From: Bdellovibrionales bacterium
GTDB lineage: Bacteria > Bdellovibrionota > Bdellovibrionia > Bdellovibrionales > UBA1609
DNA: 50,029 nucleotides
Reading direction: 5' to 3'
NCBI GenBank assembly: GCA_050246815.1
Contig: JBFWVI010000022.1
Span: forward strand, 1 to 50,029
The stretch's first letter is position 1, and every line of letters starts with the position of its first letter. The notes under the pieces are model-generated. The model saw only the letters and a list, made by a program, of their open reading frames with translations, ran no database searches and had not been told where the DNA came from. A program made the translations under genes and the position numbers. This document shows positions 27,623 to 47,227 of the stretch, in pieces.

Positions 27623-28113
27623 TGATGAAGCTCGCGCACATTGCCGCCGCTGACGAAAACAACGTGATCGGCGTCGCCGGGAAACTTCCGTGGAGTATCG
27701 CTGAAGACTTGAAATTCTTCCGCGACACCACTCGCGGTCATGCGGTGATCATGGGACGCAAAACCTTTGAGTCCTTAGGCAAACCTCTACCCAATCGCCT
27801 GAATGTGATCGTCACCCGCCAAACTGATTTTGAAGCACCCGGCGCCGCCGTGGTGGAATCACTTGAGGCCGCTTATCATTATTGTCGCGAGCAAAGCGCC
27901 CAATGGGGCGAACTGGTTTTTATTATTGGCGGTGGTGAAATTTATCAACAATCGCTCAAAGACGTCAGCCTAGTGTATTTAACCCGCGTGCACAGCCGTT
28001 ACAAAGGCGACGCCAAGTATCCCACCCTCAACCCCAGCGAATTCAAAGAAGTCTCCCGCCGCGAACGCAAAGGCGAACCCAACTACACATTCCTAACCTA
28101 TGAAAGAAGGTAG
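27622..28113 (+). CDS. folA: Dihydrofolate reductase
   Basis: LPW...DLKFF, IMGRKTFES, PLPNR, IIGGGEIY. Confidence 0.97.
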   Translation: MMKLAHIAAADENNVIGVAGKLPWSIAEDLKFFRDTTRGHAVIMGRKTFESLGKPLPNRLNVIVTRQTDFEAPGAAVVESLEAAYHYCREQSAQWGELVFIIGGGEIYQQSLKDVSLVYLTRVHSRYKGDAKYPTLNPSEFKEVSRRERKGEPNYTFLTYERR

Positions 28114-28143
28114 GCCCTTCTTTTTCCGTCTGCGTTGCGTTAC
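28108..28143 (+). repeat. REP-like repeat, single arm (copy A)
   Basis: AGGTAGGCCCTTCTTTTTCCGTCTGCGTTGCGTTAC; contains the folA stop codon. Confidence 0.85.
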
Positions 28144-28148
28144 CAAAA

Positions 28149-29837
28149 CTACTGGCAGTTCAAAACATCCGCGGCGTATTGAATCTGATAATCAAAGATC
28201 TGGCTACGTCGTCTGCTATCTTCGTATTTTTGCAGCGCCACGCCTTTTTCCATCACACAGGCCTCGATTTGCGCCACTTGCTCAGGACGTGGCTGCTGCC
28301 AAGCCTCACCCAAGGCATGTAGGGCGTTGGGCATTGCTTCGGCTTCGCGCAGGCGAAATCTTTCTTCTTCCGTCGCCCCCGGCTTAAAGGGAACCGTAAA
28401 GTCTGGGCTGATACCCACAATTTGATTGGTTCGCCCCGAAACAAAATGAAATCGCGCAATCATCGACAAAATCCAGATCTCAGCCACGGCAGGATTAGGA
28501 TGGTCGTAACCTATTGGGCTTAGCACACTGCCCTTGCCAAAGCTTCGCTCACCCAAAATCCACGCACGCTTTTCATCTTGCAAAGATCCGGCAACAATTT
28601 CTGAAGCGCTGCCCGATGAAGCATCAATTACGACCACCAAAGGTAAGTCCGTGATTTTGTCTACGGGGCTGACCAGATCCTCATCTTTCAATATACCACC
28701 CGACATCGCTTTGACATGATCCAATACGCGCTGTCGCATGATTAATTTTTTACCAACAAACAGACCGGCGATACATGCGGCCTCGGCTGTGCTGCCCCCT
28801 GAGTTTTCGCGCAAATCCAAGATCAAACCTTGGGCCTTGGCCTTTTGGTGTTTTAAAATGGCCGTACGCACGTCCTTGCAACTGCTTTTATTTAAGAACG
28901 AGTGCAACCGCATATAACCCAACCGACGACGACCGTCTTCGACCGGACTGCTTTCGACGTTGCCCACTTTGATGGCCCCGCGAACAATACTCGTTTCAAA
29001 TGCAGGTCGCCCCTCGCGCTCAATTAAAAGCTTCACTCTTGAGCCGGCTTTGCCACGCAATTTTTCAACCAACTGGCCCATGGTCAAATCGCTCACGCCA
29101 AACCCATCCACTTTTACAATGGCGTCATTGGTTATCAACTTCGCTTTGGCCGCCGGCCCACCCCTTTGCGGCTTGATGATATACTTGCTGTTAATGTGCG
29201 CAAGTTCGACACCTATGCCAACGAATTGTGTGGTGCCCGCAGTCTTTGTTTGGTCTTCCATCTTTTTACGGGGCACTAAAGAAGCATGGGCCTCTGCAAA
29301 CGAGAAAAACTCGTTAATCGCCGTAGCTGTTTGAAAGCTCTCAAGTTTGGGGTTCAAAACTAAAGGCGTGATCTGATCGAGTAACTTTTCAAAATCGACC
29401 GTTCCGCTGACCGTGACTTGGTCATACGCGGCATACAAGCGCGTCAAATCCTGCTTCTGCTGACTGTACCTTTGGTACAACGAAGGCATTGGCTTGGGTG
29501 CCGACACCGGCTTGATTTGTGCTAAGACAAAATCTCCCAAATCCAATTCTTCCACTTTTACAATTCGGTCCGCATACTCCTGCACCATGCTCTTTGGGAA
29601 AAAGCCTCGCATGGGCTGACCAAATCGTGCCAACGTATCCAAAGCACTTACGCAACCACGCGCGAAAATCAAAGCCTTGTTACAGTTGGAATTAACAATA
29701 ACTCTGATTTTAATGTTGTCGAGTTTAAGCCCGGTTTCGGCCCAATAATCTTCGATGGGCTTTTGCTCCGCTTGGGCCTGGCCGGCAAAGACTAAAGCGG
29801 CCAAAACGAATAAAACCACAGCTTTACGTAGCAGCAT
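28149..29837 (-). CDS. Secreted S41 carboxy-terminal processing protease with PDZ domain
   Basis: Signal peptide; FVGIGV PDZ; DLRENSGG, SGSASEIVAG, FGKGS. Confidence 0.9.
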   Translation of the reverse strand: MLLRKAVVLFVLAALVFAGQAQAEQKPIEDYWAETGLKLDNIKIRVIVNSNCNKALIFARGCVSALDTLARFGQPMRGFFPKSMVQEYADRIVKVEELDLGDFVLAQIKPVSAPKPMPSLYQRYSQQKQDLTRLYAAYDQVTVSGTVDFEKLLDQITPLVLNPKLESFQTATAINEFFSFAEAHASLVPRKKMEDQTKTAGTTQFVGIGVELAHINSKYIIKPQRGGPAAKAKLITNDAIVKVDGFGVSDLTMGQLVEKLRGKAGSRVKLLIEREGRPAFETSIVRGAIKVGNVESSPVEDGRRRLGYMRLHSFLNKSSCKDVRTAILKHQKAKAQGLILDLRENSGGSTAEAACIAGLFVGKKLIMRQRVLDHVKAMSGGILKDEDLVSPVDKITDLPLVVVIDASSGSASEIVAGSLQDEKRAWILGERSFGKGSVLSPIGYDHPNPAVAEIWILSMIARFHFVSGRTNQIVGISPDFTVPFKPGATEEERFRLREAEAMPNALHALGEAWQQPRPEQVAQIEACVMEKGVALQKYEDSRRRSQIFDYQIQYAADVLNCQ

Positions 29838-29914
29838 ACGAACCCCTTGTTGAGACACTAAGTAGCACAAAAGACGCGCCGCATTCAATCCTATATTTTC
29901 GTAATCATTACACA

Positions 29915-29948
29915 AAGGTGCCTGGCACCTTTTGGTTTAGCATTGCGT
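29915..29948 (+). repeat. Left inverted repeat with internal palindrome AAGGTGCC-T-GGCACCTT
   Basis: AAGGTGCCTGGCACCTTTTGGTTTAGCATTGCGT. Confidence 0.92.
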
Positions 29949-29954
29949 CGAAGC

Positions 29955-30593
29955 TTAAAGAAGTTGGGATTCAAGCGCACTGGGCGCGCGCGAACTACGC
30001 TTATTTGGCAAGGAAAACTCGGACTTACGAAGCGCCAGCCTGACGGCCTCGAGATCTTGATCTTTCGGAGCCGAATTTAGCCACTCTAAACAACCCTCCA
30101 CATCCAAAAATAAAGTTGTGTCCTCAACCACAGGCACGATCATTCTTCTAAATCCCAACAAACCATGCAGCGTTGAAAAGGGATACTCTTCGACCCTAGA
30201 ACAAAGCCTGGCCTTAACGGGGTTCCTATAGACATATTTGTAAGCCAGCAAATAATAGTGGTTTGATCTCAAAATGCTTCTAAAAAATCTCCCACCATAG
30301 GTCTGATTAATCCGCTTTGAGTAAAAATTAATCTGCCGACTGGTCTCGCCCATAAAATACTGCATCGCCGCAGATAAATTGCCATCTGGAAAGCTCGCCA
30401 ATAAGTGAAAATGATTCTGCATCAACACAAACGAATGCAAACGGGCATGATGTATGTGCGTAAGCCCATACAAATAGTCCTGCATAATTTCCCAGGTTTC
30501 TTCCATCGGCAGCGGAAACGGCCCGCGGTTCACCCCACGAGCGCTTATGTGATAGGGAAACTCCGTTGTGACTTGGACGGGCATTCGAGGCAT
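29955..30593 (-). CDS. REP-associated tyrosine transposase-like protein (Y1/IS200 superfamily)
   Basis: MPR start, YHISARG, FVLMQNHFHLL (HUH), GRF, YVYRNPVKA, YPFST. Confidence 0.9.
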   Translation of the reverse strand: MPRMPVQVTTEFPYHISARGVNRGPFPLPMEETWEIMQDYLYGLTHIHHARLHSFVLMQNHFHLLASFPDGNLSAAMQYFMGETSRQINFYSKRINQTYGGRFFRSILRSNHYYLLAYKYVYRNPVKARLCSRVEEYPFSTLHGLLGFRRMIVPVVEDTTLFLDVEGCLEWLNSAPKDQDLEAVRLALRKSEFSLPNKRSSRAPSALESQLL

Positions 30594-30691
30594 ATCCATC
30601 GTACTTCTGCACGACCTTAGCCAAGCTTCAAACCCTGCAAAATAGGGAATAAGCGTCTTAAGCACCGGTTTTCGACCATTTGGCCGAAATA

Positions 30692-30725
30692 ACGCAATGC
30701 TAAACCAAAAGGTGCCAGGCACCTT
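30692..30725 (-). repeat. Right inverted repeat
   Basis: ACGCAATGCTAAACCAAAAGGTGCCAGGCACCTT. Confidence 0.92.
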
Positions 30726-30747
30726 GGGCTAGATTTCTCATTTTGAT

Positions 30748-30775
30748 TCAAGGATCAGAATGAGACGCCCGATCA
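30748..30775 (+). promoter_or_regulatory. Sigma28-like promoter TCAAG-N15-CCCGATCA
   Basis: Resembles the FliA consensus TAAA-N15-GCCGATAA; upstream of flagellin. Confidence 0.6.
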
Positions 30776-30869
30776 GCTTGATGACAGGGAATTGCACCCA
30801 CACACCGTGGCCAGAATGGTCCGGCGAGTCTCAAGGAATGAGACTTGATTCTTCAAGGAGGAGGAAACA

Positions 30870-31715
30870 ATGGGTTTGCGGATTAATACCAATACCGCGT
30901 CTTTGAATGCCCAAAGAAATTTGATGGGCACAAAGCTAGGGTTGGATAAAAACTTGGAGCGTTTGTCTTCAGGTTACCGAATCAATCGCGCCGGCGACGA
31001 TGCTGCCGGTCTTGCGATCTCAGAAAATTTACGAGCGCAAATTCGAGGCTTGAAACAAGCCTCACGTAACGCCCAAGACGGCGTGTCGCTCGTGCAGGTG
31101 GCAGAGGGCGGGTTAAACGAACTCAGCTCCATCTTGATCCGTTTGCGCGAATTATCAGTGCAAGCGGCCAGTGACACGATCGGTCCGGTCGAGCGTCAAT
31201 TCCTGAACGTGGAATATGACCAACTCGTCTCCGAGATCGATCGGATCGCCGATGGAACTGAATTCAACGGCACGCAACTCTTAAGCGGAACCGGTTCGAT
31301 TCTGGACTTCCAAGTGGGAACCCGAAACGACCCGAACATCGACCGCTTGTCGTTTGACGCCTCAAAGGCCGACGCCAACTCGGCGGCTTTGGGGGTGAAT
31401 CTGACCTCGGTGGCCGATAAAGCCTCGGCGCAAAACGCGCTGTCGGCCATCGACCAAGCGATCGTCAGCGTGTCCGCGATGCGCGCCGACTTTGGTGCGA
31501 TCCAGAACCGTCTGCAATCGACGATTAGTAACATTGCCGTTTCAGTCGAGAACATGTCCGCAGCCAACTCGCGTATTCGTGACGTTGATGTGGCCGAAGA
31601 GACCGCCGAACTCACTAGGAACAACATCCTGCTGAATGCTGGCACCTCAGTTCTTGCTCAAGCGAACCAAACAGCACAAACCGCTTTAAGCCTTTTGAAC
31701 AGAACTTTCTCTTAA
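30870..31715 (+). CDS. fliC: Flagellin (short, 281 aa)
   Basis: LRINTN, RLSSGYRINRAGDDAAGLAI, GAIQNRL, SRIRDVDVA. Confidence 0.97.
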   Translation: MGLRINTNTASLNAQRNLMGTKLGLDKNLERLSSGYRINRAGDDAAGLAISENLRAQIRGLKQASRNAQDGVSLVQVAEGGLNELSSILIRLRELSVQAASDTIGPVERQFLNVEYDQLVSEIDRIADGTEFNGTQLLSGTGSILDFQVGTRNDPNIDRLSFDASKADANSAALGVNLTSVADKASAQNALSAIDQAIVSVSAMRADFGAIQNRLQSTISNIAVSVENMSAANSRIRDVDVAEETAELTRNNILLNAGTSVLAQANQTAQTALSLLNRTFS

Positions 31716-31866
31716 TTGAGAATTAATGGCGCGATTCACCCTCGCGCCTAAAAACCTGGTTCAAAGTCTTTAGCTCACCCGGGATTCTTCAGGACGAAGA
31801 TTCCCACCTCGAGTGGACTCGGGGCTGAACAGAAAATACTTGTTTCCTGCGATGATTTTTTTTGCG

Positions 31867-31897
31867 GGGCGGATGGATCAAACCATTCGCCCTTTTT
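31867..31897 (+). terminator. Intrinsic terminator downstream of flagellin 1
   Basis: GGGCGGATGG-ATCAAA-CCATTCGCCC followed by TTTTT. Confidence 0.7.
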
Positions 31898-31978
31898 GAA
31901 TGCAGGCCCTTCTTTTTCCGTCTGCGCCGCGTCGCTTGCGACGCTGCGCAGACGGAAAAAGAAGGGCCTGCATTCAAA
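31895..31978. repeat. REPIN-like palindrome (copy B)
   Basis: Two inverted 41-nt arms, one mismatch, TT loop; core CAGGCCCTTCTTTTTCCGTCTGC. Confidence 0.9.
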
Positions 31979-33227
31979 GAGGGACGTCGGCGTGCTTGTA
32001 CTTGGGTTGCGTGGTTTTTTTGCCACCAGCGAAGCTTTCAACCTCCGCAACAAATTCCGCCAAGTCCTGCCGCAGTTTAGAGTCCGCGAAGATAGCTGTC
32101 GAAAGTTGAGGAAAAATCTCCAACTCCAGCTGGTTGACTGGCTGCTTGGTCAACAGCAGGCCCGTTTTTAGATCATGAACATAAAAACGATCCACGGTCA
32201 TAAAACCTAACTTATCTTCTTTGTCGCCATCCGTGTCGATAAGATTGATCCCAATGCGCTGATTGTCGACACGACGACGCGCCTGCAATGTTTCAAGCTG
32301 TTCCGGTTTAAAACCAAGCTTATGGATCAAAATCTCACGAATCAAATGCACGGACTCCATCACCGGGCGGTCCTTGGGCCACACGCCCTGGATCTCTTGC
32401 CGCCGAGTAAAACCCTGCTGCTCACCCAGGTTCTTTTTAATCGTCACCATTCTTTGCACCACGTGCTCAAGTTCGCTGTCTTGGGGCGCGCGATGCGGCG
32501 ATCCTAACTCATGTTGCTTCGACGACCACAATTTCAAACGAGCCGCAACACCGGAACGCTCAAGCAACCCGTCCTCAGTATCGAAATAAAGGCCTAATTC
32601 ACTTTGACGACCGACCAAATAAGTTGTTTCGACGTAGTCGGACCAAGGGTTACTACCCGGGTCGCGAAATCTGGAATCTAGAGGCCGTAGTGAAATGCGA
32701 CTGCCATAAAGTGTGTCGACCAATGCTCCATCAGGAGTTTCCCCCTCGCCCCACTGATTCACCATGCGCCGGCTGCCGGGACCGCGGACGGTGGCCATGC
32801 CTCCATCGTGGAAGTGCTCATAAATCGAACGCAAAGGTTGCAGCTGGATGCGGCCCTGCCAATGTGGCGGAACCATCGCACCACCGTAGGTTTTGCCCTT
32901 CATCATCTGATACTGAGACCCGTAGAAGTTCCCAAGCAAAGAGCCGGCATGATCCAATCCTGAGCGCTGACGGTCGGCCAAGTTGATCCGTCTTTCCCAC
33001 TCGACCTGAGACAGCACGTCAAACGAGAGGATTTGCGCGCCTATGGCCACGTGAAGAATTTCCCTGTCACCTGCCGGCTGAGTGATCAAACCGTCGTAAT
33101 CGAGACGCCCGTTTTGGTTATCTTGGGACAAAAATGGGTCACAAGGGCCCTGCCCAATAGACGCTGAGCTTGCCAGAGAGCTTAGAAAAACCAATAAAAT
33201 TAAGGCCACGCGACCCCAGCAACCCAT
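31974..33227 (-). CDS. CYTH-like domain protein with signal peptide
   Basis: LYFDT..LL..SG..ARLK, VTIK, RQE, TVD, QLELE, PKY; start is 33227 or 33239. Confidence 0.7.
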   Translation of the reverse strand: MGCWGRVALILLVFLSSLASSASIGQGPCDPFLSQDNQNGRLDYDGLITQPAGDREILHVAIGAQILSFDVLSQVEWERRINLADRQRSGLDHAGSLLGNFYGSQYQMMKGKTYGGAMVPPHWQGRIQLQPLRSIYEHFHDGGMATVRGPGSRRMVNQWGEGETPDGALVDTLYGSRISLRPLDSRFRDPGSNPWSDYVETTYLVGRQSELGLYFDTEDGLLERSGVAARLKLWSSKQHELGSPHRAPQDSELEHVVQRMVTIKKNLGEQQGFTRRQEIQGVWPKDRPVMESVHLIREILIHKLGFKPEQLETLQARRRVDNQRIGINLIDTDGDKEDKLGFMTVDRFYVHDLKTGLLLTKQPVNQLELEIFPQLSTAIFADSKLRQDLAEFVAEVESFAGGKKTTQPKYKHADVPL

Positions 33228-33254
33228 TAACTGTTCCATGTTACGCTTTGGCCT

Positions 33255-33270
33255 CGCAAGAAAAGGGCCA
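33255..33270 (-). promoter_or_regulatory. Sigma54 promoter TGGCCCTTTTCTTGCG
   Basis: GG-N10-GC on the minus strand. Confidence 0.65.
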
Positions 33271-33432
33271 CTTTTGATGCTCTAAATGATGCTTCTCAAG
33301 GCAAATATTTTCAGAGCTGTCCAATGTTTGTTCATCGTGAACGATATCGCCCTTAGTTCGAGCGGCCTACGGATAATCCACTGTCATTGCGGCGGCCGCC
33401 CGACATCCTGTGCCCTCAGCACTTGTCGAAGG

Positions 33433-33915
33433 TTAACCCGCGCAAACCGCTTTGTTGTAACGATCCGCCAACGCTTTGGCCTGATCATTGTAACGGGCCT
33501 GAGCGCGGCTGGTTTGTTGAGTGTAACTGGCTAAAGCGTCTTGGGTTGCCAGACTGTATTTGAGTTGAGCCGCTTTTGTGGTGTTGTTGAACTTCAAGGT
33601 TAAAGTATCCACGGCTTCGCGCCAGCCGGCCTCTGTGGTTTCGCGGATCGATGCGAGCTCTTGATCAAAGGTGACACGCGCTTCGGCGATAGTGCGATTG
33701 TATTCCGACATCTCATAAGCCACAACACGATCATATTCAGCCACAGAATAGGCATAAGAATTTTTTAATTCCGCCATGATCATAGCAACACCTGCGTCAT
33801 ACTCAGCACGAGCCTGTTCAACCGTGGCGGTGGGTTTACATACATTCTCATTGGCTATGGCCTGAAGGCTCAAAGCCGCCGAAATCAGCAGGGCCGAAAC
33901 CAGAATTGCTCGCAT
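33433..33915 (-). CDS. Secreted all-helical protein with 11-residue periodicity
   Basis: AAGGAG RBS, signal peptide ending AIA-N, Cys near each end. Confidence 0.8.
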   Translation of the reverse strand: MRAILVSALLISAALSLQAIANENVCKPTATVEQARAEYDAGVAMIMAELKNSYAYSVAEYDRVVAYEMSEYNRTIAEARVTFDQELASIRETTEAGWREAVDTLTLKFNNTTKAAQLKYSLATQDALASYTQQTSRAQARYNDQAKALADRYNKAVCAG

Positions 33916-34077
33916 AAAATCTCCTTGATGTGTGTTTGGGTTCACGAACGAAGCTCGGTCGAACATAGTCGACATCAAGACGTTTGGCTTGTGAGTATTT
34001 TGTGAAATTGCCACGACAATCATGGCACGTAAGACCATGGCCTCGTCGAGTTCGCCTCATAATGCGGCAATCTAGAC

Positions 34078-34105
34078 TCCACATGCCTGTCGTGCGTCCC
34101 GATCA
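34078..34105 (+). promoter_or_regulatory. Sigma28-like promoter, same -10 (CCCGATCA) as flagellin 1
   Basis: CCCGATCAG-N4-ATGA is shared by both flagellin upstream regions; -35 is weak. Confidence 0.45.
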
Positions 34106-34238
34106 GAGACATGAAGGGCTGCAAGCTCTTCAAGTCAGGCGCTCACGCGTTTGGCTCAATATTAATCGGATACAGAATGTGTCCGCTGCCAATTGGATGG
34201 CACGAATCAAGGAGGATGAGAGATGCAGGGAGGATAAT

Positions 34239-35072
34239 ATGTCTTTAAGGATTTCGACAAACGTGGCGTCATTGAACGCCCAAAAAAGTTTGTCGGGAAA
34301 CAACAGAGCGCTTGAGCAATCGCTTGCGCGCTTAAGCTCAGGTTTTCGCATTAACCAAGCCGCAGACGATGCGGCGGGGCTGGCGATCAGCGAAAACTTA
34401 AGGGGCCAAATCCGCGGATTGCGACAAGCCAGTCGCAACTCTGAGGATGGGATTTCGCTGGTTCAGGTGGCCGAAGGCGGCTTGAACGAAACGTCTTCTA
34501 TGTTGATCCGATTGCGGGAGTTGGCGATCCAAGCCTCTTCTGACACCATCGGCGACGTCGAGAGAAAATTTCTTGATGTCGAATATCAACAGTTGAAGTC
34601 AGAGATGCAGCGGATCTCGGAAGTGACCCAGTTCAACGGCCGCGATCTATTGAACGGAACCGGCGGGATCATGGACATCCAAGTGGGTGTGCACAATGAT
34701 CCCTTCAAAGACCGAATTTCGTTTAATGCTTCGGCCGCGAACTCGACGCTGGAAGCACTTGGCATGACCGCTGAGTCTTTGGCGACCAAAGAGATGGCTC
34801 AGCAAAGCATCTCGGTTGTCGACACGGCGATGGTTTCGGTGAATGCCATGCGCGCCAATTTCGGCGCCATGCAGAACCGCCTGACCTCGACGATCAGCAA
34901 CTTGGCCGTGGCACACGAGAACTTGTCAGCCGCCAATTCGCGTATTCGCGATGCGGACGTGGCTGAAGAGACCTCGCAACTGACTCGCAACTCGATTTTG
35001 TTGCAAGCCGGTGTCTCGGTTCTGGGTCAAGCCAACTCGATTCAGCAAGTGGCTCTTAAATTATTATCGTAA
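34239..35072 (+). CDS. fliC: Flagellin (second paralog, 277 aa)
   Basis: GGAGG RBS; MSLRISTN, RLSSGFRINQAADDAAGL, GAMQNRL, SRIRDAD. Confidence 0.97.
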   Translation: MSLRISTNVASLNAQKSLSGNNRALEQSLARLSSGFRINQAADDAAGLAISENLRGQIRGLRQASRNSEDGISLVQVAEGGLNETSSMLIRLRELAIQASSDTIGDVERKFLDVEYQQLKSEMQRISEVTQFNGRDLLNGTGGIMDIQVGVHNDPFKDRISFNASAANSTLEALGMTAESLATKEMAQQSISVVDTAMVSVNAMRANFGAMQNRLTSTISNLAVAHENLSAANSRIRDADVAEETSQLTRNSILLQAGVSVLGQANSIQQVALKLLS

Positions 35073-35079
35073 GTTTTGT

Positions 35080-35109
35080 GGCCTCGGTGTATGCACCGAG
35101 GCCTTGTTT
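35080..35109 (+). terminator. Terminator hairpin after flagellin 2
   Basis: GGCCTCGGTG-TATG-CACCGAGGCC then TTGTTT. Confidence 0.75.
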
Positions 35110-35127
35110 CTAAAGTTGGCGCCGAGA

Positions 35128-35559
35128 TTACTGATTGTCACAGCTGATCACTTGGTCGCTGACCGTGACTTGTTTTTGCGCTTTGTTGTAGGTGGCAATA
35201 ACAACACTTGTTCCATCCGGGGTTGCATTTGAATAGGTGTCCACTTCGCCCTCGCTGGTCACTTGCACTTCGTTCAAAGTCAGCGTGCGGCCACCCACAA
35301 CAAAACCTTTTTGGCCCGCGCCCACAGAGCGGACGCTGGTTTCAAAAATAATACTTTCGCCATTTTTCGATTTGAAGACGCTTGCCACAACCCCTTCTTG
35401 CCCAACTTTACTGGCCTCTTTCGAAATGCAGGTCATCACCAGATCGTGGCCCGCCATCTTACCGGCGATCATTTCGTTGGTGACCGGATTTTTGCGGCCC
35501 TCCATCTTAGAGCAACCAACAGCCAACAAGGCCAAAGCCAAAGTCCATTGCATTTTCAT
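35128..35559 (-). CDS. Hypothetical beta-rich lipoprotein
   Basis: LAVGC lipobox, GGGAG RBS, two further Cys. Confidence 0.78.
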   Translation of the reverse strand: MKMQWTLALALLAVGCSKMEGRKNPVTNEMIAGKMAGHDLVMTCISKEASKVGQEGVVASVFKSKNGESIIFETSVRSVGAGQKGFVVGGRTLTLNEVQVTSEGEVDTYSNATPDGTSVVIATYNKAQKQVTVSDQVISCDNQ

Positions 35560-35620
35560 AAACATCTCCCAACCAAAGGGTTCAAAATTTTAATTTCTAA
35601 TGAAAGCCAAAGGCCCCTAG

Positions 35621-35636
35621 AGCAAGGCCAACGCCA
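35621..35636 (-). promoter_or_regulatory. Sigma54 promoter TGGCGTTGGCCTTGCT
   Basis: GG-N10-GC with TGGC and TTGCT. Confidence 0.7.
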
Positions 35637-35892
35637 CGCTTGGCCCGAGACCCGCGCCTATTTAATTTGATCTGGTCGAAACTCGCCCTAAAGATATTAC
35701 AGACACAGGCGCAAACTGGGCCTCGCGAAAAGCTTGGACGCTTTCGCCACTGCTTTTTCCTTATATATATAGGCTGACACTTTCGCTATGGTGCCGCCCA
35801 TGAAAAAGTCGCTTTAGATTTTATGAGTGCTGCTAACAGGCCACCTTCAAACTCAGTAGGCTCATCCTTTCTTTTTTTGTTGTCCGTTTTAG

Positions 35893-35908
35893 CGGCATTC
35901 GCCTTGCA
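35893..35908 (+). promoter_or_regulatory. Sigma54 promoter CGGCATTCGCCTTGCA
   Basis: GG-N10-GC with GGCA and TTGCA. Confidence 0.7.
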
Positions 35909-35955
35909 GTATACCGGCTGGAATCGAACGTAATATGGTTTAAAGGAGTTCTGCG

Positions 35956-37911: not shown

Positions 37912-37946
37912 TCTCCTTTTAGGAAGTCAAAACTGCAGTGTCTTTG

Positions 37947-39646: not shown

Positions 39647-41633
39647 GCTCTCGACCTTTGTTTTGAGGCTCTTTCGTCGCCAGTTCGACTTTGACTCCGG
39701 CGGGCACAAAATCGATCCGGCCCTCATCCACATTCACCGCAGCCACGGTCACGGTGAAGGGATCGCCGATCTTGATCACATGCCCTGACCTTCTGCCTAC
39801 CAGTCGCATATTTTTCTCGTCAAATTCAAAACGATCCCCAGGCAGGGTTTCCAGGCGCACAAGGCCATCCACGTCAAATTGGCGTAAGATCACAAATAGA
39901 CCGAATTTGGTGACGGAGCTGACCATACCCTCAAATTCATTGCCCAATTGCTTTTGCATGAAGCGAGCTTTTTTGATGGCCTTGATTTGACGCTCTGCCT
40001 TCGCCGAACGCTGCTCACAGGCGCTTAAAAAGGCGCCCGTCGAGCCTAAATCATCGCCCGAGATCATTTCATAGCCCCGAATCTTGAGCAAAGCCTTCAT
40101 CTGGCGATGCACGATCAGATCGGGGTAACGGCGAATGGGGGAGGTGAAATGCGCATAGTCTTGAAAGCCCAAACCAAAGTGGCCGATGTTTTCAGAACTG
40201 TATTGGGCCTGTGCCATGGACCTGAGGGTTAAAACGTTCAAGATGTGCTCTTGCGGATGACCCGCGAAGTCTTGTAACGCCTTGGTGATTTTCTTTTGCA
40301 GTCCACCGCCCACGATTTGGCGCTTTGAACCCAAGGTGGCCATGAATTTTTCAAGATTCGAGATCGCATCCGGATTCGGCGAATCATGAATACGATAAAG
40401 CGCCGGCACGGATCTGGCAGTGAATTGTTTGGCCACCGCCACATTGGCCATCAACATCAGCTCTTCGATCAAGCGATGCGCAAACAGGCGCTCGGATTGC
40501 AAAACGTCCACCGGCTGGCCGGTCTCGTCGATTTCAAGTTCGGTCTCGGGGATTTCCAAATCCAAAGAGCCTTCTTTAAAACGCTTGGCCATTAAAATTT
40601 TAGCTAAATCACCCGCCCGCTTAATGTCAGCCGCCACATGAGCCAGATCTTTGGGAATGTTGTTGTCGATGACCTCTTGGGCCTCGCCGTAGGTAACGCG
40701 CGCTTTGCTTTCGATCACGGCCTCATAAAACTGGCTGTCCAACAAATCGCCGGTGAAGCTGAGCTGCATTTCAGAAACAAACGACAACCGTGGAACTTTG
40801 GGCTTGAGCGAACAAAGCTCATTGCTTAATTTTTCTGGCAGCATCGGCGCCACGAAGTTCGGAAAGTACGTGCTGGTTCCGCGCTCGTAGGCATCTTGGT
40901 CGATACCGGTGCCCGGCTTCACATAATGGCTGACGTCCGCAATGGCCACCCAAAGCCGAAAGCCACGATCGCTGGATTCCACATAAATCGCGTCATCGAA
41001 ATCTTTGGCGGTGCGCCCATCAATGGTGATGAAATTTAAATTGCGCAGGTCTTTGCGGCCGCTCAAATCGCGTTCGCTGACTTCGTTGGGTAAACGCGCG
41101 GCCTCTTGTAAAGCCCTTGCTGAAAATTCGTGAGGAATGTTGTGGGTATGTAAAACGCGAATGGAATCATTTAGCGGATTTGCAGCATCGCCGATCACGG
41201 CGACAGCTTTGCCGGTCAGACCTTCACCGGCATCCGGATAAGTGACCACATCCACCGAAATCCAATCGCCTGGTTTAATGTGCAAATTCATCGGGTTTTT
41301 GACGATCACATCGGCGCCCCATGCAAAACTGTGGTCGCGCAAACAGCCCTGACCACCACCCAACTCTTCATAGCGCCCCGTCACCCGCTTCACGGCGCGG
41401 CTGATGATTTGCTGAATCTCACCGCGAAAGCGCTGGCCACCGGGTTCGCGCATCACTCGCACGGTGACACGGTCATTGGCCATCACCCCTGACATTTCAT
41501 GGCGCGGAATGTAGACATCAGGTGCTTCAGTGTCGTCGGGGACGAAAAAGCCAAACCCATCCGGGTGCCTTTTTACGATTCCAGTTAATGATTGATTTTT
41601 TGCTGCTGAACGTTGCCGAGGAATTTTTGACAT
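39534..41633 (-). CDS. rnr: Ribonuclease R
   Basis: HPDGFGF, TIDGRTAKDFDDA, HFTSPIRRYPD, S1 domain, basic tail. Confidence 0.95.
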   Translation of the reverse strand: MSKIPRQRSAAKNQSLTGIVKRHPDGFGFFVPDDTEAPDVYIPRHEMSGVMANDRVTVRVMREPGGQRFRGEIQQIISRAVKRVTGRYEELGGGQGCLRDHSFAWGADVIVKNPMNLHIKPGDWISVDVVTYPDAGEGLTGKAVAVIGDAANPLNDSIRVLHTHNIPHEFSARALQEAARLPNEVSERDLSGRKDLRNLNFITIDGRTAKDFDDAIYVESSDRGFRLWVAIADVSHYVKPGTGIDQDAYERGTSTYFPNFVAPMLPEKLSNELCSLKPKVPRLSFVSEMQLSFTGDLLDSQFYEAVIESKARVTYGEAQEVIDNNIPKDLAHVAADIKRAGDLAKILMAKRFKEGSLDLEIPETELEIDETGQPVDVLQSERLFAHRLIEELMLMANVAVAKQFTARSVPALYRIHDSPNPDAISNLEKFMATLGSKRQIVGGGLQKKITKALQDFAGHPQEHILNVLTLRSMAQAQYSSENIGHFGLGFQDYAHFTSPIRRYPDLIVHRQMKALLKIRGYEMISGDDLGSTGAFLSACEQRSAKAERQIKAIKKARFMQKQLGNEFEGMVSSVTKFGLFVILRQFDVDGLVRLETLPGDRFEFDEKNMRLVGRRSGHVIKIGDPFTVTVAAVNVDEGRIDFVPAGVKVELATKEPQNKGRERVDHSQSKNKPSEKRRPAKNNNKRFRSKRVPPGRRRG

Positions 41634-41693
41634 GATCTTCGCTTAACGTAACACGATTGCGGCGGACTCACAATGCCGGATTGCGCAATAACT

Positions 41694-42191
41694 TTAAATC
41701 CGCCGATACTTGAGAAAGTTAAAATACTTAGAGGGGATAATATCAATCTCAGTTTTGGCTCCACAAGATTTGCAAACACCATTTTCAGGCAATGACGAGC
41801 CCTCTTTGGTGTCAACGCTGCCTTCCATATAGTCTTTGCCTCGTACCGCCAAATAAGATTCTTCCTTGCCGCAGGCCGGACAAGCATAAGGAACAAAAAA
41901 TGATTCCACGATGGCGCCCATGGGCAAAAAGCCCTGCAAGATGTTCATCTGATCGACCACCGTGCGTGGACAATTGCGAAACACCATCTGGCTTTTGACT
42001 TTCAGTTGTTTGATCCACATCACCCAGTTGCGAAGTCCCATGGAATTGAGATTTTTGACCTCGCTCAAATCCAGATAGATCAGCTTGCTGCCTTCCAAAC
42101 GCAACTGTGAAAAATCACTGTTTTCGTTGATGGTGCCGCTGATGTGGATGACACACTCGTTGCCTTTATTCTCAACCCGGAATTGTTTCAA
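41694..42191 (-). CDS. STAS-like domain protein with C-terminal CxxC/CxxC zinc ribbon
   Basis: ISGTINE, LDLSEVKNLNSMGL, CPAC and CKSC. Confidence 0.75.
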   Translation of the reverse strand: MKQFRVENKGNECVIHISGTINENSDFSQLRLEGSKLIYLDLSEVKNLNSMGLRNWVMWIKQLKVKSQMVFRNCPRTVVDQMNILQGFLPMGAIVESFFVPYACPACGKEESYLAVRGKDYMEGSVDTKEGSSLPENGVCKSCGAKTEIDIIPSKYFNFLKYRRI

Positions 42192-42193
42192 TC

Positions 42194-43174
42194 TTAAACC
42201 TCAATCACCATGCCCTCGCGGGCAAAACACCAGTCGACTTCGTGCACCGGCTCGTTCTGCTCTTTTAGACTTCGCACGATAGCCTGGTAGTATTCGCGTG
42301 TCTGCCCTTCGATCTTGGCAATTTTGCCATCTGAAGCGGCAGGATCGTGATGGATGAAAAACACCCGCTTCACTTTTTCGCGCATGGCCAGATCCAATCC
42401 AATCGGCGCCGAAGCATGGCCCCAATTGATGCGCTCAGTGGCTTCGACAAACGAATACTGAGCATCGAAAATCATCGCATCGACGTTTTGATAAAGGGGC
42501 AGGTCGGGCCCCAATTCACTGGCACTCATACGGATACATTCGGAGTCCACGCAGTACGCCAGAACTTTTTTATCGTGTTCAAAGCGATAGCCCCAACAGG
42601 GATCCGGATGATCGAGTTCATACGGAGTGTATTCAATGTCGCGCAGTTGAACCTTTTGGCGTGGCGACAACCGATGAAAATGGATCTTGGCACCCAATTG
42701 ATCAAAGGGCACCGGAAAGCGCGGCTTTTCGAACATCGAGCGCACATGATCGGGTAAGTCTTCTTGCACGGCGTACATATGGATTTGATTGCCGGGAATA
42801 AACATCGGCAAAAAAAACGGCAGGCCGATCAAGTGATCCCAGTGAAAGTGAGTGAATAAAATATGAACTTCACCGCGACCCAAACCACATGGGCCCATCA
42901 CCAACTGTTCACCCAAACGACGCAAACCGCTGCCACCATCGATGATCACATTGGCTTTGGGAGTGGTGACTTGAATGCATGCGGTATGGCCGCCAAAGCC
43001 GCCCTTGCGACTATGTGGCAAACTATTAAGAAATTCTTTAACCGACTTGCCGCCCTTTGACTGGTAAGCGACAAATTCTTCAAGCGTCTGCAAAAGACGC
43101 TCTTCAAGCTGGGCTGGAGTGTGGGGCGCGGGCAAGGATCCGCGAATCCCCCAAAGGTGAACTTTCATCGCCAT
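42194..43174 (-). CDS. Metallo-beta-lactamase-fold hydrolase (phosphodiesterase-like)
   Basis: WGIRGS, DGGSG, THFHWDH, DAQY, WGH, HHDP. Confidence 0.9.
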   Translation of the reverse strand: MAMKVHLWGIRGSLPAPHTPAQLEERLLQTLEEFVAYQSKGGKSVKEFLNSLPHSRKGGFGGHTACIQVTTPKANVIIDGGSGLRRLGEQLVMGPCGLGRGEVHILFTHFHWDHLIGLPFFLPMFIPGNQIHMYAVQEDLPDHVRSMFEKPRFPVPFDQLGAKIHFHRLSPRQKVQLRDIEYTPYELDHPDPCWGYRFEHDKKVLAYCVDSECIRMSASELGPDLPLYQNVDAMIFDAQYSFVEATERINWGHASAPIGLDLAMREKVKRVFFIHHDPAASDGKIAKIEGQTREYYQAIVRSLKEQNEPVHEVDWCFAREGMVIEV

Positions 43175-43234
43175 TTAAAGATGTTAGCAAGAGAATCAAA
43201 GGCCAAGCAACCGGCCTAGGCCTGGACGGCCAGT

Positions 43235-44071
43235 CTACTTTTTCAAGCAAAGCTTGCGAATTGAGACTGAGTCTAACAACCCGCCATAAGTATTCTGTGC
43301 CCCGGAGGCACGGAACAAGATCTTGTTCAAACCCTTGTTGATCGGCACCACAACCTTGACCTTTTGCCAGGTCGAACTGGGCACATCCGCCACGGATCTG
43401 ATTTTTGAATTGCCCACAAACACGTCAATGCGATTGTCGTCGGCGGTTTGGACGCGGCCGCGATACTGAAAGCTCACACAATACTTGGCGCTGTATTTCA
43501 CATTCAAGACTTGATACATCCCTGAGTTGGTTTTGCCACCGCGAGCGGTGTTTGAGTGACTGTCGAGTTCGACCAGATGTTTGCCAGATGCGGCCGCAAC
43601 CACTCCGCCAGATTGAATTTCAATACCAGAAGTGCCGTCTTCGGCGTACCACGAAACATCACAATCTTGTCCGGGCAAGCTGGCGAACACATCCCAAAGC
43701 TTGCCGTCCGCCAAAGCATTCAGGGCAACGCCGTTGGTTAAGCCAACGCGGCTATCGACGACTTCAAAGTCTCCATTGTCGATCAATTCAGAGCCGCACT
43801 CTTCATATTGACCGCCAACCGAACAATCAGCCACGTCCTCGGGTGGACCATCATCTGGAGGATCTTGCGGATCATCCGGGGTGATCGGCGGCTCGTCTGT
43901 GGGCGGAATATCCTGGGAAATATTGTCCCCACCTTTTTCGGAACCCGCGATGCTGAAACGAGCCGGCGAGCAGTTTTGAAAGAACGAGGTCACCGAGGCT
44001 AAGATTAGCACATGAACCGCAACTAAAATAGCTGTGGCGGTTTTTGATTTCAGTAAATGCAGATGGCTCAT
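43235..44071 (-). CDS. FQNC-type lipoprotein with Pro/Asp linker and carbohydrate-binding-like beta-sandwich
   Basis: FFQNCS, PPTDEPP linker, LIDNGDFE, VELDS, GGLLDSVS. Confidence 0.75.
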   Translation of the reverse strand: MSHLHLLKSKTATAILVAVHVLILASVTSFFQNCSPARFSIAGSEKGGDNISQDIPPTDEPPITPDDPQDPPDDGPPEDVADCSVGGQYEECGSELIDNGDFEVVDSRVGLTNGVALNALADGKLWDVFASLPGQDCDVSWYAEDGTSGIEIQSGGVVAAASGKHLVELDSHSNTARGGKTNSGMYQVLNVKYSAKYCVSFQYRGRVQTADDNRIDVFVGNSKIRSVADVPSSTWQKVKVVVPINKGLNKILFRASGAQNTYGGLLDSVSIRKLCLKK

Positions 44072-44095
44072 GTCTCCCCCGACATGTTGATAAAG

Positions 44096-44111
44096 AGCAA
44101 AGGCCAGACCA
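44096..44111 (-). promoter_or_regulatory. Sigma54 promoter TGGTCTGGCCTTTGCT
   Basis: GG-N10-GC, 25 bp upstream of the ATG at 44071. Confidence 0.65.
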
Positions 44112-44151
44112 ACGGCCAAAACTCCAAATCGAAATTAAGAGGCCGGCGATT

Positions 44152-44166
44152 GTCTCAGCCTGAGAC
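44152..44166. promoter_or_regulatory. Palindrome GTCTCA-GCC-TGAGAC
   Basis: Same dyad as 19095-19109. Confidence 0.5.
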
Positions 44167-44392
44167 TGACTTGCTTCTCAGTAAAAAAGTGTCATCTGCA
44201 AAACCCGCTTTGCCCCGCTGAGTAGCATAAAACATGAGTAAAATTGATCCGTTATGACCTTGTCGTAAAAAGTCTAAACAGCCGACCATCACCCCCCGGC
44301 TCCTGTTTGATTAGGAACTCCGCGTTTGCACTTCGAAAAGCCGCGGGCGTAAATTAATCTCAAAACAAAACACCTTGGCCCCCGAGGATTGA

Positions 44393-45178
44393 GTGGAGCG
44401 ACTGCTGAGTTTGGCGCAAAAAACGGTGGATTTGGTTGCGGATCATTGGACGGTCGCTCACCCTGCGACTGATCAACTGCGCCGATTAAAAATCGTCGGC
44501 CATCGTGGAATTGGCTCTGGTCCCGGCGAAAATCAAATCGCGGGTTTTGTGGCCTGCGCCGAAGCCGGAGTATGGGGTGTTGAGCTGGATGTGCGCTGGA
44601 CCCGCGACAATGTTCCCATCGTGCTGCATGATGCAAACACCCGTCGCGTCTTCGCTGCTCCTGTGTGTCACCCTCAGCAGCTTACCTGGATTGAGCTGCA
44701 GTGCTGTCAACCGGGTGTGCCCTCGCTGCAACAAGTGCTCAGCGCTTTGCGCGGGCGCTGCCACCTGATGATCGAAATCAAAGAAGAGTTCACGCCTGAG
44801 CGCGAAGAGATTTTGTCGCACATCCTTTCGCTGCTTCGTCCTAAAGAACACTATCATCTACTGACTTTGGAGCCCGCTTTGCTTGAGAACTGCCAGAAAT
44901 TCAAGGCGGACTGTCGTGTGCTGGTCAGCGAGCTCAATGCGGCCCAGGCCTCGCGCTATGTTTTGAGGAATGCTTGGGGTGGCACCGCGGGCCATTATTT
45001 GCTGCAGACCACCAAACAAATTGCCGCCCATCATCACGCGGGACAGGCTGTGGGTGCGGGTTTTATCACTAGCTTCAATAATGTTTGTCGACAGTTACAC
45101 CGTCAAATCGACTGGATTTTTAGCGACCAGGCCGTGAATTTACAGCAGGCCATTCGACGCCATCTTGACCAAACTTAA
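44393..45178 (+). CDS. Glycerophosphodiester phosphodiesterase family protein
   Basis: GHRG, EN, ELDV, HD, IEIK. Confidence 0.88.
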   Translation: MERLLSLAQKTVDLVADHWTVAHPATDQLRRLKIVGHRGIGSGPGENQIAGFVACAEAGVWGVELDVRWTRDNVPIVLHDANTRRVFAAPVCHPQQLTWIELQCCQPGVPSLQQVLSALRGRCHLMIEIKEEFTPEREEILSHILSLLRPKEHYHLLTLEPALLENCQKFKADCRVLVSELNAAQASRYVLRNAWGGTAGHYLLQTTKQIAAHHHAGQAVGAGFITSFNNVCRQLHRQIDWIFSDQAVNLQQAIRRHLDQT

Positions 45179-45191
45179 GGAGCCACGTTAA

Positions 45192-46181
45192 ATGGCTCTT
45201 CCAAATGGGGAGGGCCAGATGGAAGTCGTGCAATCGCGTTTTACCACGGAACAAGTTCCCGAGCTGAGCCTGGCCGATTATTTGAGTGGTTCAAGTGAAG
45301 CCCGCCGCCAATTCATCGAGGATCTGTTTCGCGGCCTGAAGTATTTCGGTTTCATCGTCTTGAAGGACCACCCGATCGACGAAGATCTTCTGGCCCACGC
45401 TTATGATTTAAGCCAACGTCTGTTCGCCCTACCTGAAGAGCGCAAGCGCTCTTACATTTGCTCCGCTGGAGCCGGGCAACGTGGCTATACGCCCTTTGGT
45501 CGCGAACACGCCAAAGATTCCAAATTTCCCGATTTGAAAGAGTTCTGGCATGTGGGCCGTGACTTTGCGCCCACCAGCAAATTTATAGATCAATATCCCG
45601 CGAATATCTGGCCCGAAGAATTCCCTGATTTCAAACCCGTGTACCAACGCCTTTATGAATCCTTGGACGGTGTGGGTCGCGTGATCCTGCGCGCGTTGAC
45701 CGAGCCCTTGCAACTTGAAGCCAACTACTTTGACAAAATGGTCAACCAAGGCAATTCGATTTTGCGTATGCTGCACTATCCTCCACTTGCACCCGATGTC
45801 GATCCCAATTGCATCCGTGCGGCCGCCCATGAAGATATCAATTTGATCACCATTTTGGTTTCGGCTTCCGCTTCGGGCCTGCAGCTGAAAGATCGTCGTG
45901 GTGAGTGGCTGCCGATCGAAACCAAGGCCAACAACTTAATTGTGGATGCGGGAGACATGCTGGCGCGAATCACCAATGAAGTAATTCCGTCGACCACTCA
46001 TCGCGTGGTGAACCCCGAAGGCCCCAATTTGCCACGTTATTCCATGCCGTTCTTTATGCATCCCAATCCCGATGCCTTGCTGACCTGCATTCCGTCATGC
46101 AAGGGCGACGGCGCCAAATACCCAGACATTTTGTCTGAAGACTTTTTGCAGCAGCGCTTACGAGAAATCGGGCTGAGGTAG
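45192..46181 (+). CDS. Fe(II)/2-oxoglutarate oxygenase, isopenicillin N synthase family
   Basis: RGY, LRMLHYPP, HED, GDML, HRV, RYS; alternative start 45219. Confidence 0.92.
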   Translation: MALPNGEGQMEVVQSRFTTEQVPELSLADYLSGSSEARRQFIEDLFRGLKYFGFIVLKDHPIDEDLLAHAYDLSQRLFALPEERKRSYICSAGAGQRGYTPFGREHAKDSKFPDLKEFWHVGRDFAPTSKFIDQYPANIWPEEFPDFKPVYQRLYESLDGVGRVILRALTEPLQLEANYFDKMVNQGNSILRMLHYPPLAPDVDPNCIRAAAHEDINLITILVSASASGLQLKDRRGEWLPIETKANNLIVDAGDMLARITNEVIPSTTHRVVNPEGPNLPRYSMPFFMHPNPDALLTCIPSCKGDGAKYPDILSEDFLQQRLREIGLR

Positions 46182-46269
46182 GCCCTTCTTTTCCCGTCTG
46201 CACAGCGTTACGGCAAGCAAAGCTAGCAGGGTAACGCTGTGCAGACGGGAAAAGAAGGGCCTACCTCAG
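46173..46269. repeat. REPIN-like palindrome (copy C)
   Basis: Perfect 39-bp arms (46173-46211, 46231-46269) around a 19-nt spacer. Confidence 0.92.
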
Positions 46270-46277
46270 GGGGAAAT

Positions 46278-46994
46278 ATGAGAATCATCGCATCGTCTAC
46301 GGTCTTTGCTGCCGTACTGACTTTTGCCAGCACTGCGGCGCATGCCGAAACGATCGGCTGGAATGAATGGGCTGATCGTTATCCAGGAGTTGCAAAGTAC
46401 TACACACCAGAATACTCGGGGCTAACTCTCGTTGAACAAGAAGATCGCTTTACTCCGCACTCAGGCCTTATTATCCCTGACGATTGCCAACCTCCTCGGA
46501 TCAGTGAGTCCGTCCCGGGCCTTGAAGACATGGATCCGATTATCGCCCTAGGCGAAAAAGTCTGGAAATTGATCGATGCCGGCCGCCCTGTGGTCAACTT
46601 CCAAGCACCGGTTGCGCACGCTCTTCCTAACGCCACTACCTGCTGGACCGAACTTGAAAACTGGCGCCCACCAGCCAGTCAAACGTGGGAAGTAAATTAT
46701 AAAAATGGCTTCGATATGAACGTGGTGAGATTTCGCTTTAAGGTCGTCTATTCAGCCGGAGGCAAATGGGAGAGCAAAGGCGCCTATCTTGCGAACGTCA
46801 CAGTGTTGCCCGCAGCCTTGGATGTGGCCTGGGGCTACACCGTGAACGCCCAAACCATGGTTGGCCGCGCCCTAAACCTTGGCACCAAAGAAAATCCAGT
46901 GGCGGGCTTGCAACTCTTGGTCTCGTGGAACGTGAAGACGGTGGTCAAAGATAGCACCATGAGTGAATCAATTTTCGTTCGAGCGGATCGGTAA
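46278..46994 (+). CDS. Secreted hypothetical protein with beta-rich C-terminal half
   Basis: AGGGGGA RBS, signal peptide ending AHA-E. Confidence 0.8.
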   Translation: MRIIASSTVFAAVLTFASTAAHAETIGWNEWADRYPGVAKYYTPEYSGLTLVEQEDRFTPHSGLIIPDDCQPPRISESVPGLEDMDPIIALGEKVWKLIDAGRPVVNFQAPVAHALPNATTCWTELENWRPPASQTWEVNYKNGFDMNVVRFRFKVVYSAGGKWESKGAYLANVTVLPAALDVAWGYTVNAQTMVGRALNLGTKENPVAGLQLLVSWNVKTVVKDSTMSESIFVRADR

Positions 46995-47188
46995 ATCGGG
47001 AGACACTCGGCATGCGGACCATCCGTTTCTGGTCTAAGCCACTGCCCAAAGAATTTTTACAGCGATCGATCAAATCATAAAATAGAGTTATCGACATCTT
47101 AAATGCGCACCTAAATCGCCGAGCGAATCGACGAACACATGCCGCGCGGATATGTAAAGTTGGTGCCTTCGCACCAACACTCCTGCAA

Positions 47189-47227
47189 GCAACGCAGTGC
47201 AGACGGGAAAAGAAGGGCCTACCTCAG
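47189..47227 (-). repeat. REP-like repeat, single arm (copy D)
   Basis: Reverse complement CTGAGGTAGGCCCTTCTTTTCCCGTCTGCACTGCGTTGC, 37/39 identical to the copy C arm; contains the valS stop codon. Confidence 0.9.

Follow-up and report, generated by a model that had tools for sequence, protein, structure and literature searches.

Arms of a Y1-transposase element at gene stop codons and an A/C shift at upstream silent sites in Bdellovibrionales

The analyzed stretch of DNA, hereafter the window, comprises positions 1 to 50,029 of contig JBFWVI010000022.1 of a Bdellovibrionales bacterium (assembly GCA_050246815.1; 50,029 nt) and contains a dispersed repeat whose arms coincide with the ends of host genes (Table 1). 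A 22-nt core of this repeat occurs six times without mismatches, and 100 shuffles of the sequence gave no match (0/100). The initial annotation had described six arms, as singles and inverted doublets at four loci, resembling repetitive extragenic palindromes (REPs) and overlapping a gene's stop codon at every locus. The six arms lie where they were claimed, folA, the 2-oxoglutarate (2OG) oxygenase gene and valS all end in AGG TAG within an arm, and a stop is touched at 4/4 loci of the window. At doublet B, the TGA of the adjacent gene stands just before the doublet, 7 nt ahead of its core, but the label CYTH proposed for this gene found no support, a Pfam and NCBIfam search returning no family match. 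The arms of doublet B are 96% complementary and those of doublet C 100%; ~12 nt of host gene end, copied in inverted orientation, lengthen the doublet B hairpin.

Table 1. Repeat arms, host genes and the sister element in the 50,029-nt window
Feature	Position	Strand	Remarks
folA (DHFR)	27622..28113	+	host gene
Arm A, single	28108..28143	+	head holds folA last codon AGG and stop TAG
Core	28112	+	exact match
Sister element	29915..30725		Y1 gene between 34-bp inverted arms of a second family
Sister Y1 transposase gene	29955..30593	-	46% identical to the C39 transposase
Doublet B	31890..31983		both arms GCAG-headed
Core	31904	+	exact match
Core	31948-31969	-	exact match
Gene without assigned family	31974..33131	-	host gene; its TGA precedes the doublet B head
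2OG-Fe(II) oxygenase	45192..46181	+	host gene; ends CTG AGG TAG
Doublet C	46173..46269		both arms GTAG-headed; perfect 39-bp stem
Core	46180	+	exact match
Core	46241-46262	-	exact match
Arm D, single	47191..47227	-	head holds valS AGG TAG
Core	47199-47220	-	exact match
valS	47219..49891	-	host gene

The arm is the terminal inverted repeat (TIR) of an element, 803 nt long, that carries a gene for a Y1/HUH transposase and was recovered on two further contigs, C99 and C39. Contig C39 starts with the Y1 gene, followed by an arm, while C99 ends in the opposite arm, and an exact 127-nt overlap between them yields the order arm-gene-arm. The join is backed by the neighbouring gene order, with the downstream neighbour syntenic in three relatives (G001-G003). 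The catalytic motifs of the transposase (H61, H63, Y120, N124 and P125, i.e., Y120-x3-NP) are invariant across 95 sequences. Its structure model (pLDDT 90), searched over residues 7-194, is best matched by TnpA-REP (4er8; Z 16.8, root-mean-square deviation (rmsd) 2.5 over 158 residues), and a match to the IS608 transposase (2vhg) gave Z 9.9 with rmsd 7.3 over 111 residues. The protein scores 61.8 bits with NF047646, under the cut-off of 80. No targeting domain was apparent in a Pfam helix-turn-helix (HTH) search or in the structure comparison, and the residues by which the E. coli enzyme contacts GTAG (W94/Q95/E100/H101/R104) are absent in the cognate enzyme, where the aligned stretch reads IFGGPHYKCAIQN vs IWQPRFWEHAIRN.

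Nine Y1 matches were detected in the genome, two of which, 46% identical, are members of this transposase family. The second member lies in the window; it was considered as the carrier of the folA/valS-type arms and ruled out, its own arms being different. This sister family counts 28 arms in the genome, and 14/22 of those facing a gene end lie on its stop. Sister arms form near-perfect terminator-like hairpins, resemble two-way terminators and fill convergent gaps. Three of them have a long CACCAAAAGG head and stand 1, 3 and 14 nt behind the stop, while short heads overlap it. The seven other Y1 proteins (L001, L003-L005, L007-L009; three nearly identical) are of another type without these arms; two of them have 57-60 bp inverted repeats nearby.

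A census of the whole genome (149 contigs, 99% complete; genes called with our own hexamer-trained caller) revealed 31 arms at 21 loci, 28 of them exact and three with one mismatch, and no further match was found when up to three mismatches were allowed. They are arranged as nine doublets, 11 singles and the two element ends, and are headed by GTAG (22), GCAG (8) or CTAG (1). At 18/21 loci, the stop of a called gene falls inside the head or directly ahead of it, so that the overlap with a stop, complete in the window, does not extend to every locus of the genome. Sixteen arms provide the stop through the TAG of their head, and three GCAG-headed arms stand behind a host TGA or TAG; the second doublet on contig C45 has a stop at each of its two arms. 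Sorted by head, the stop-touching arms divide cleanly: GTAG arms use their own TAG (15/15) and GCAG arms keep the host stop (3/3). The host genes include rplI, rpoD, rpoN, glnA and lexA, all above their NCBIfam cut-offs, as well as dksA-like, iscS-like, iscA, mlaD-like and transketolase-like genes.

This concentration is far above background. Among GTAG sites at positions compatible with non-coding DNA, 144/1746 are real stops, compared with 15/21 GTAG arms (P ~2e-12, duplicate omitted). When the size of the intergenic gap was taken into account, 19/21 arms facing a same-strand gene end lay within -9..+1 of it, with 7.3 expected (P 5e-12); the arms of one doublet are not independent in these counts. 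The view of a non-autonomous, Y1-transposase-linked repeat concentrated on stops is upheld. Three loci lie off a stop: one doublet follows the 3' end of the signal recognition particle (SRP) RNA, as placed by its Rfam model, at a distance of 18 nt, another follows rpoN at 170 nt, and the third is a local duplicate, 150 bp in size, of the arm copy at dksA.

Two of these loci and the arms themselves offered further observations. The stretch of ~150 bp with an arm and a terminator is duplicated locally on contig C37 (26950-27100 and 27770-27920). The SRP-associated doublet (C15:20898-21081; L042:2984-3082, minus) lies between the RNA 3' end and the start of the next gene, which we take to be dnaX-like; SRP RNA was the sole match of an Rfam search at five sources. 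Several doublet stems (window 31890-31983, C15, C5, C45 and L288 of genome G141) are extended outward by an inverted, locus-specific host flank, which suggests template switching after arrival. In all arms of both families of this genome (G000) and of the relative G002, a constant tail ending in GCG(T/C) encloses a three-base hypervariable spacer, and by its sequence this tail looks like a protein-binding site with a spacer.

Single arms form no stable palindrome, as the initial annotation had stated: the folding z-scores of four arms (-0.07, +1.19, +0.83 and +2.06) are no better than those of shuffles, and the stem behind the z of -2.21 for arm A draws on host bases. Doublets form long hairpins (z -14.6 for C and -16.0 for B).

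Homologous transposases were found in 180/301 genomes of the order, with named homologs in Bdellovibrio, Pseudobdellovibrio, Bacteriovoracaceae and Oligoflexia, including the cultured species Bdellovibrio bacteriovorus and Pseudobdellovibrio exovorus. We examined 44 homolog loci, comprising the 29 best non-self matches of the order search and 15 from a second search. By a strict seed test, 32/44 have a TIR pair spaced 680-1090 nt apart, and all but one of the 32 pairs start with a related GG[T/C] head. The element ends fall on the stop of an open reading frame (ORF) of at least 100 codons in 30/61 usable cases, compared with 1163/32115 non-coding positions (3.6%).

Dispersed arms behave alike. 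In six sets, 82/151 arms lie on a stop, 62 of the 82 at -4, -3 or +1: the C39-element family contributes 18/30, the sister family 14/28, genome G055 9/14, G056 12/18, G002 12/30, and a set of three related genomes (g62) together with G028 17/31. Genomes entered these sets on the visibility of their arms, any arm lying less than 330 nt from a locus edge was excluded, the g62 genomes share loci, and the loci were drawn from 30/34, 30/47 and 29/32 matches. Most arms of the six sets hold no TAG; a host TAA, TAG or TGA instead merges into the A/G run of the head. Homologous arms have GTAC, GTGC or GTTC at the place of GTAG and lie on stops all the same, and a stop-like triplet is present at the head of only 31/69 non-stop arms, near chance by our estimate. 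Stop adjacency is therefore a property of the whole clade and independent of a TAG in the arm. The core itself was not found in 60 relatives and metagenome contigs.

Arm sites were also compared between genomes. Arm identity over 36 nt is kept between genomes that are 84% alike. Only 2/11 host genes of G002 with a G000 match share arm occupancy, and one gene end can carry different types of arm in different genomes, as seen for the oxygenase gene, rpoD, dksA and the host gene on C99: the oxygenase ortholog of G002 has another arm type at the same stop, and at the C99 gene end G002 carries a 36%-identical transposase, with none in G001 and G003. Among the three g62 genomes, differences at the head junction include a 9-nt indel, a duplication of 21 nt and the loss of a native terminator, and a whole-gene indel ends at an arm head; arm-less alleles in this set have the same C-terminus and an equivalent stop. 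In four sequencing runs compared with window positions 27500-47499, two of which cover the region fully and are possible source runs, no join skipping a whole arm locus appeared among the joins listed.

Related sites showed other changes. A gene of ~600 nt, present only in G091 among nine genomes (L139, compared with G160 L251 and G141 L252), has its TAG joined to a doublet head, and G160 has the doublet without the gene, reflecting a gain or a loss. At orthologous stops of the g62 set, arms have turned into perfect terminator-like palindromes or have been reduced to an 8-bp palindrome (L261, L131 and L289 vs L122 and L296).

Orthologs of 13 host genes were read for their C-termini; the partial genes at C20, C21, C66, doublet B and C94 were left out. 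Ten of the 13 (folA, valS, rpoN, glnA, iscA, rpoD, rplI, mlaD, dksA and the C99 gene) equal at least one arm-less ortholog in length, valS matching 3/3. The exceptions are the oxygenase, at least one residue shorter than 4/4 orthologs, iscS, shorter than 4/4, and lexA, one residue longer than 5/5; on sequence grounds, a changed C-terminus is most plausible for the oxygenase. Identical last codons and stops also occur without the repeat: GAG TAG for rpoD in G003, TTC TGA for rpoN in G002 and AGG TAG for valS in G006. The dksA product ends in YAR in 5/5 orthologs, where the last Arg is never encoded by AGG, so the change brought by the arm is silent. A 465-aa host gene on C45 was not found in five relatives with one query.

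The arm seems to leave its imprint at the level of codons. AGG is the last codon in 8/16 genes with a TAG in the head, compared with 8/717 other TAG genes, and all five genes of the genome that end in CTG AGG TAG carry an arm. A G-ending last codon is found in 15/16 and 144/717 genes, respectively; the sole exception is ATC, for Ile, which has no G-ending codon. From this pattern, the arm head probably supplies the last letters of the final codon. The proposal that C-termini are rewritten was mostly refuted, oxygenase, iscS and lexA apart, and orthologs without the repeat do share terminal codons. The rewriting affects chiefly upstream silent sites, which the initial annotation had not noted.

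At four-fold degenerate sites in the last 20 codons, the C39-element family has C at 0.55 and T at 0.07 (n=164), and the sister family, with the strongest shift of all, has C at 0.68, G at 0.06 and T at 0.06 (n=175); the background of 2498 other genes has C at 0.35, G at 0.28 and T at 0.22. In folA, third positions are A or C at 14/14 four-fold sites of the last 30 codons, compared with 28/47 further upstream. This A/C shift spans the last 30-40 codons and fades by 40-60 codons. Two-fold sites shift likewise, and T is lowered in 7/7 flanking-base contexts; avoidance of a cleavage motif was accordingly not supported as the cause. A within-gene test was positive for 16/18 genes of the C39-element family and 18/18 of the sister family, compared with 49% of the 2498 background genes.

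Counted from the end inward, 56 arm-less orthologs are nearly flat (A+C 0.53, 0.51, 0.47, 0.46), while four orthologs with arms of their own are not (0.74, 0.67, 0.50, 0.51). A set of 119 genes with ordinary terminators is unshifted, and only six of them have a hairpin that begins no more than 2 nt from the stop. The shift is repeated in G002, G055 and the g62 set. It is stronger beside single arms than beside doublets in the first 60 nt (A+C 0.85 vs 0.62), and convergent genes near the tail are shifted as well (0.75, n=59). A mirror-image G/T shift on the tail side, considered from raw composition, was narrowed to convergent genes within ~60 nt of the tail. The shift beside the arms is likely due to repeated transposase nicking at the arms.

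HUH enzymes keep the 5' side of the cut and free the 3' side. In E. coli, single-stranded DNA to either side of a REP is cleaved by TnpA-REP over a stretch of >400 nt, and the strands are then rejoined (PMC3333891; this and the other literature below is cited from the accessible parts of each source). On this analysis we lean tentatively, at a little under even confidence, towards a cycle of nicking, trimming and refilling that would draw the arm to the stop and shift the last 30-40 codons toward A/C. The transposase would nick the sense strand at each arm. Arms would at first insert into the small interval that follows a gene, a site at which the host tolerates them; after the HUH cut, the gene-side strand would be left with an exposed 3' end, to be shortened by host nucleases; and rejoining at small matches to the A/G-rich head would remove the spacer up to the point where selection on the protein halts further loss. 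A TAG-bearing head may thereby replace the stop plus a wobble base, or the last Arg codon, while GCAG heads would keep the native stop. The single-stranded template would deaminate (A to I, C to U), giving T to C and G to A on the sense strand. The trimming part is proposed because it fits the split between GTAG and GCAG arms, the long sister heads behind stops and the labile g62 heads. A wider reading, possible though improbable in our judgment, is that transposase and arms make up a system for editing gene ends across Bdellovibrionales: arms would be homed or ratcheted to the stops of core genes, where the enzyme would remain active as a local mutator of the last 100-150 bases. That this action would be strand-specific, and the arm an occasional junction for the gain or loss of whole genes, we hold with the same reserve.

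Several findings weigh against the nicking and trimming cycle. Native terminators are kept behind the arm at rpoD, glnA and dksA, as a simple insertion at the stop would leave them, and no empty allele of the same species was found. The C39 transposase (L041:105-797) does not have the usual stop of its homologs and runs for ~18 residues through the right arm; judged by its reading frame, it may be impaired. The genes glnA and lexA have no shift, and G056 has little. Non-coding DNA beside single arms reaches A+C 0.55-0.56 vs 0.51, less than mutation alone predicts, and the lost G goes mostly to C, with A rising only from 0.15 to 0.19-0.20, contrary to what deamination alone predicts. Silent divergence near shared arms is 78/171 vs 578/1528 upstream (P 0.057, with dependent pairs); it is not lowered and marginally raised at most.

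An unlikely competitor is direct insertion where translation ends, e.g., into a non-template strand exposed behind the ribosome, with the shift as a separate after-effect. It would account for the tight clustering of arms at -4, -3 and +1 and their scarcity 10-60 nt away, for the native stops and C-termini kept in arm-less orthologs, and for the different elements at the ends of the oxygenase gene, rpoD, dksA and the C99 gene. It leaves unexplained the replacement by AGG and CTG AGG, the long heads and the lost g62 terminator, and the occupancy shared by just 2/11 G002 host genes and the lack of an apparent targeting domain also count against it. Somewhat less credible still is host selection for the arm-stop layout at the level of the mRNA: arms would protect its 3' end, serve in termination or govern the release of ribosomes, and would perform best directly at the stop and behind A/C-rich RNA that lacks structure. 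In its favour, silent sites read toward the arm show the largest shift and non-coding DNA a weak one, 36 nt of arm sequence are unchanged in genomes of 84% similarity, sister arms look like two-way terminators in convergent gaps, and E. coli REPs are described as local regulators in the 3' untranslated region (10.64898/2026.03.23.713779). Selection of this kind is at odds with the absence of a shift in genes with ordinary terminators, where the hairpin begins no more than 2 nt from the stop in only 6/119 cases, and with silent divergence that is not lowered; moreover, single arms fold no better than shuffles, and doublets, the strongest hairpins, shift less.

The interpretation of the initial annotation, in which GTAG directs an enzyme to cleave at CT close to gene ends, with new last residues and the stop contributed by the arm, is very improbable. 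TnpA-REP does cut at CT (PMC8266576), all five CTG AGG TAG genes have arms, AGG is enriched, and oxygenase and iscS are shorter. Yet CT-GAG precedes just 8/31 arms, arms without GTAG or TAG act alike (those with GTAC, GTGC or GTTC are on stops too), the GTAG-contact residues are absent and 10/13 C-termini keep their length. Least of all would we credit the absence of any special process, with a short target motif, dense packing, purifying selection and a shift older than the arms. Several gaps are barely longer than an arm, and of 312 GTAG sites within 100 nt behind a stop, 160 have the stop in the preceding 7 nt; against this speak the gap-conditioned tests (P 5e-12 and 5e-7), the unshifted arm-less orthologs and the stop-like triplet in only 31/69 non-stop arms.

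Other features of the genome are recorded here. Accessory-looking genes lie beside or between arms (window 46239-46994, C94:6450-7623, C45:23120-24517 and C5:93424-94299), which makes gene capture possible. The oxygenase gene and valS are adjacent in G001, and mlaD runs directly into the next conserved gene in four relatives. Two flagellin paralogs of the window (30870-31715 and 34272-35072) are 71% alike across 225 nt. A ~90-nt repeat is present in 33 copies between short stretches on C98, C120, C126, C129, C138 and C149 and presumably resembles integron attC sites. Contig C125 (4.4 kb) carries telomere-like six-base tandem repeats and is a possible contamination.

Together, the arms leave two measurable marks, a base-exact placement on stops that is independent of the arm's own sequence, and an A/C gradient that is strand-specific and extends through 30-40 codons. 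If the wider reading of a gene-end editing system is true, these marks would be a sequence-readable record of the in vivo activity of a domesticated enzyme resembling REP-associated tyrosine transposases (RAYTs). They also call for caution, as codon bias at the 3' ends of genes in these genomes need not reflect translation. A host benefit of RAYTs has to be assumed (10.1101/2021.07.10.451892) and the mechanism of REP spreading is still to be elucidated (PMC8266576), according to the accessible text of these works.

Compared with known systems, the repeat shares the HUH/Y1 core with IS200/IS605 elements (IS608, 2vhg, Z 9.9), which have no terminal inverted repeats and are multi-copy (PMC2817692, accessible part), whereas here TIRs are present with one gene per arm family. 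Miniature inverted-repeat transposable elements (ERIC, NEMIS/Correia, RUP; PMC3733652, PMC3184786, as far as accessible) likewise form short, non-coding TIR-TIR doublets near coding sequences; here there is an HUH partner enzyme, single arms make up the majority of loci, and, with no same-species empty site found, no target duplication could be defined. With REP, BIME and REPIN repeats and RAYT groups 2 and 3, the system shares the fold (4er8, Z 16.8), inverted hairpin doublets and a location at gene 3' ends, judging from the available portions of PMC2817692, PMC3333891, PMC8266576 and PMC5581495. The GTAG termini of REPs often supply the TAG stop of flanking ORFs (Di Nocera, PMC3733652 section 15, in its accessible text), so stop overlap as such was already known. 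The differences are that GTAG is not family-wide, single arms have no stable palindrome and are intact and common, NF047646 stays below its cut-off (61.8 < 80), the GTAG-contact residues (those given in the accessible part of PMC6006769) are absent, and stop adjacency does not require TAG.

TnpA-Y1 subclass 2.1, or TIRYT (Quentin 2018, PMC6006769), is marked in its accessible text by a C-terminal HTH and the motif GGGG[AT][CG]A[CG]. An HTH was matched in 0/95 members of our family (Pfam, E 0.05), with matches in the outside homologs L283 and L281, and our arms start with AGGT or AGGC instead, the motif occurring only in L283 among 32 TIR pairs. Among outside homologs, the nearest one seen is L283; it combines HTH_23 with a GGGGTCAC arm and matches the family profile with 99% probability over 160 columns. 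TIRtrons (Di Nocera 2013, PMC3733652) share a RAYT-like Y1 gene between TIRs and moderately abundant dispersed copies, both singles and dimers; in their broad definition, as given in the accessible text, they comprise a TIR-flanked gene, HuH with a catalytic Tyr and class-2 Y---NP, and dispersed TIRs, all of which are present here. Stop-exact placement and the codon shift are not described there in the text seen, and Bdellovibrio is named nowhere in the searched, partly searchable supplements of PMC3733652 and PMC6006769. The mostly open-access literature that was searched held nothing on Bdellovibrio RAYT or TIR repeats, on base-exact placement independent of TAG, or on a codon shift beside such repeats. 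Because the marks of both fail, the system is filed under neither subclass 2.1 nor REP/RAYT; in its way of working it corresponds to a broadly defined TIRtron. The type of system is thus known, and what is surprising about it is the clade-wide, sequence-independent precision of the arms together with the local, strand-specific shift.

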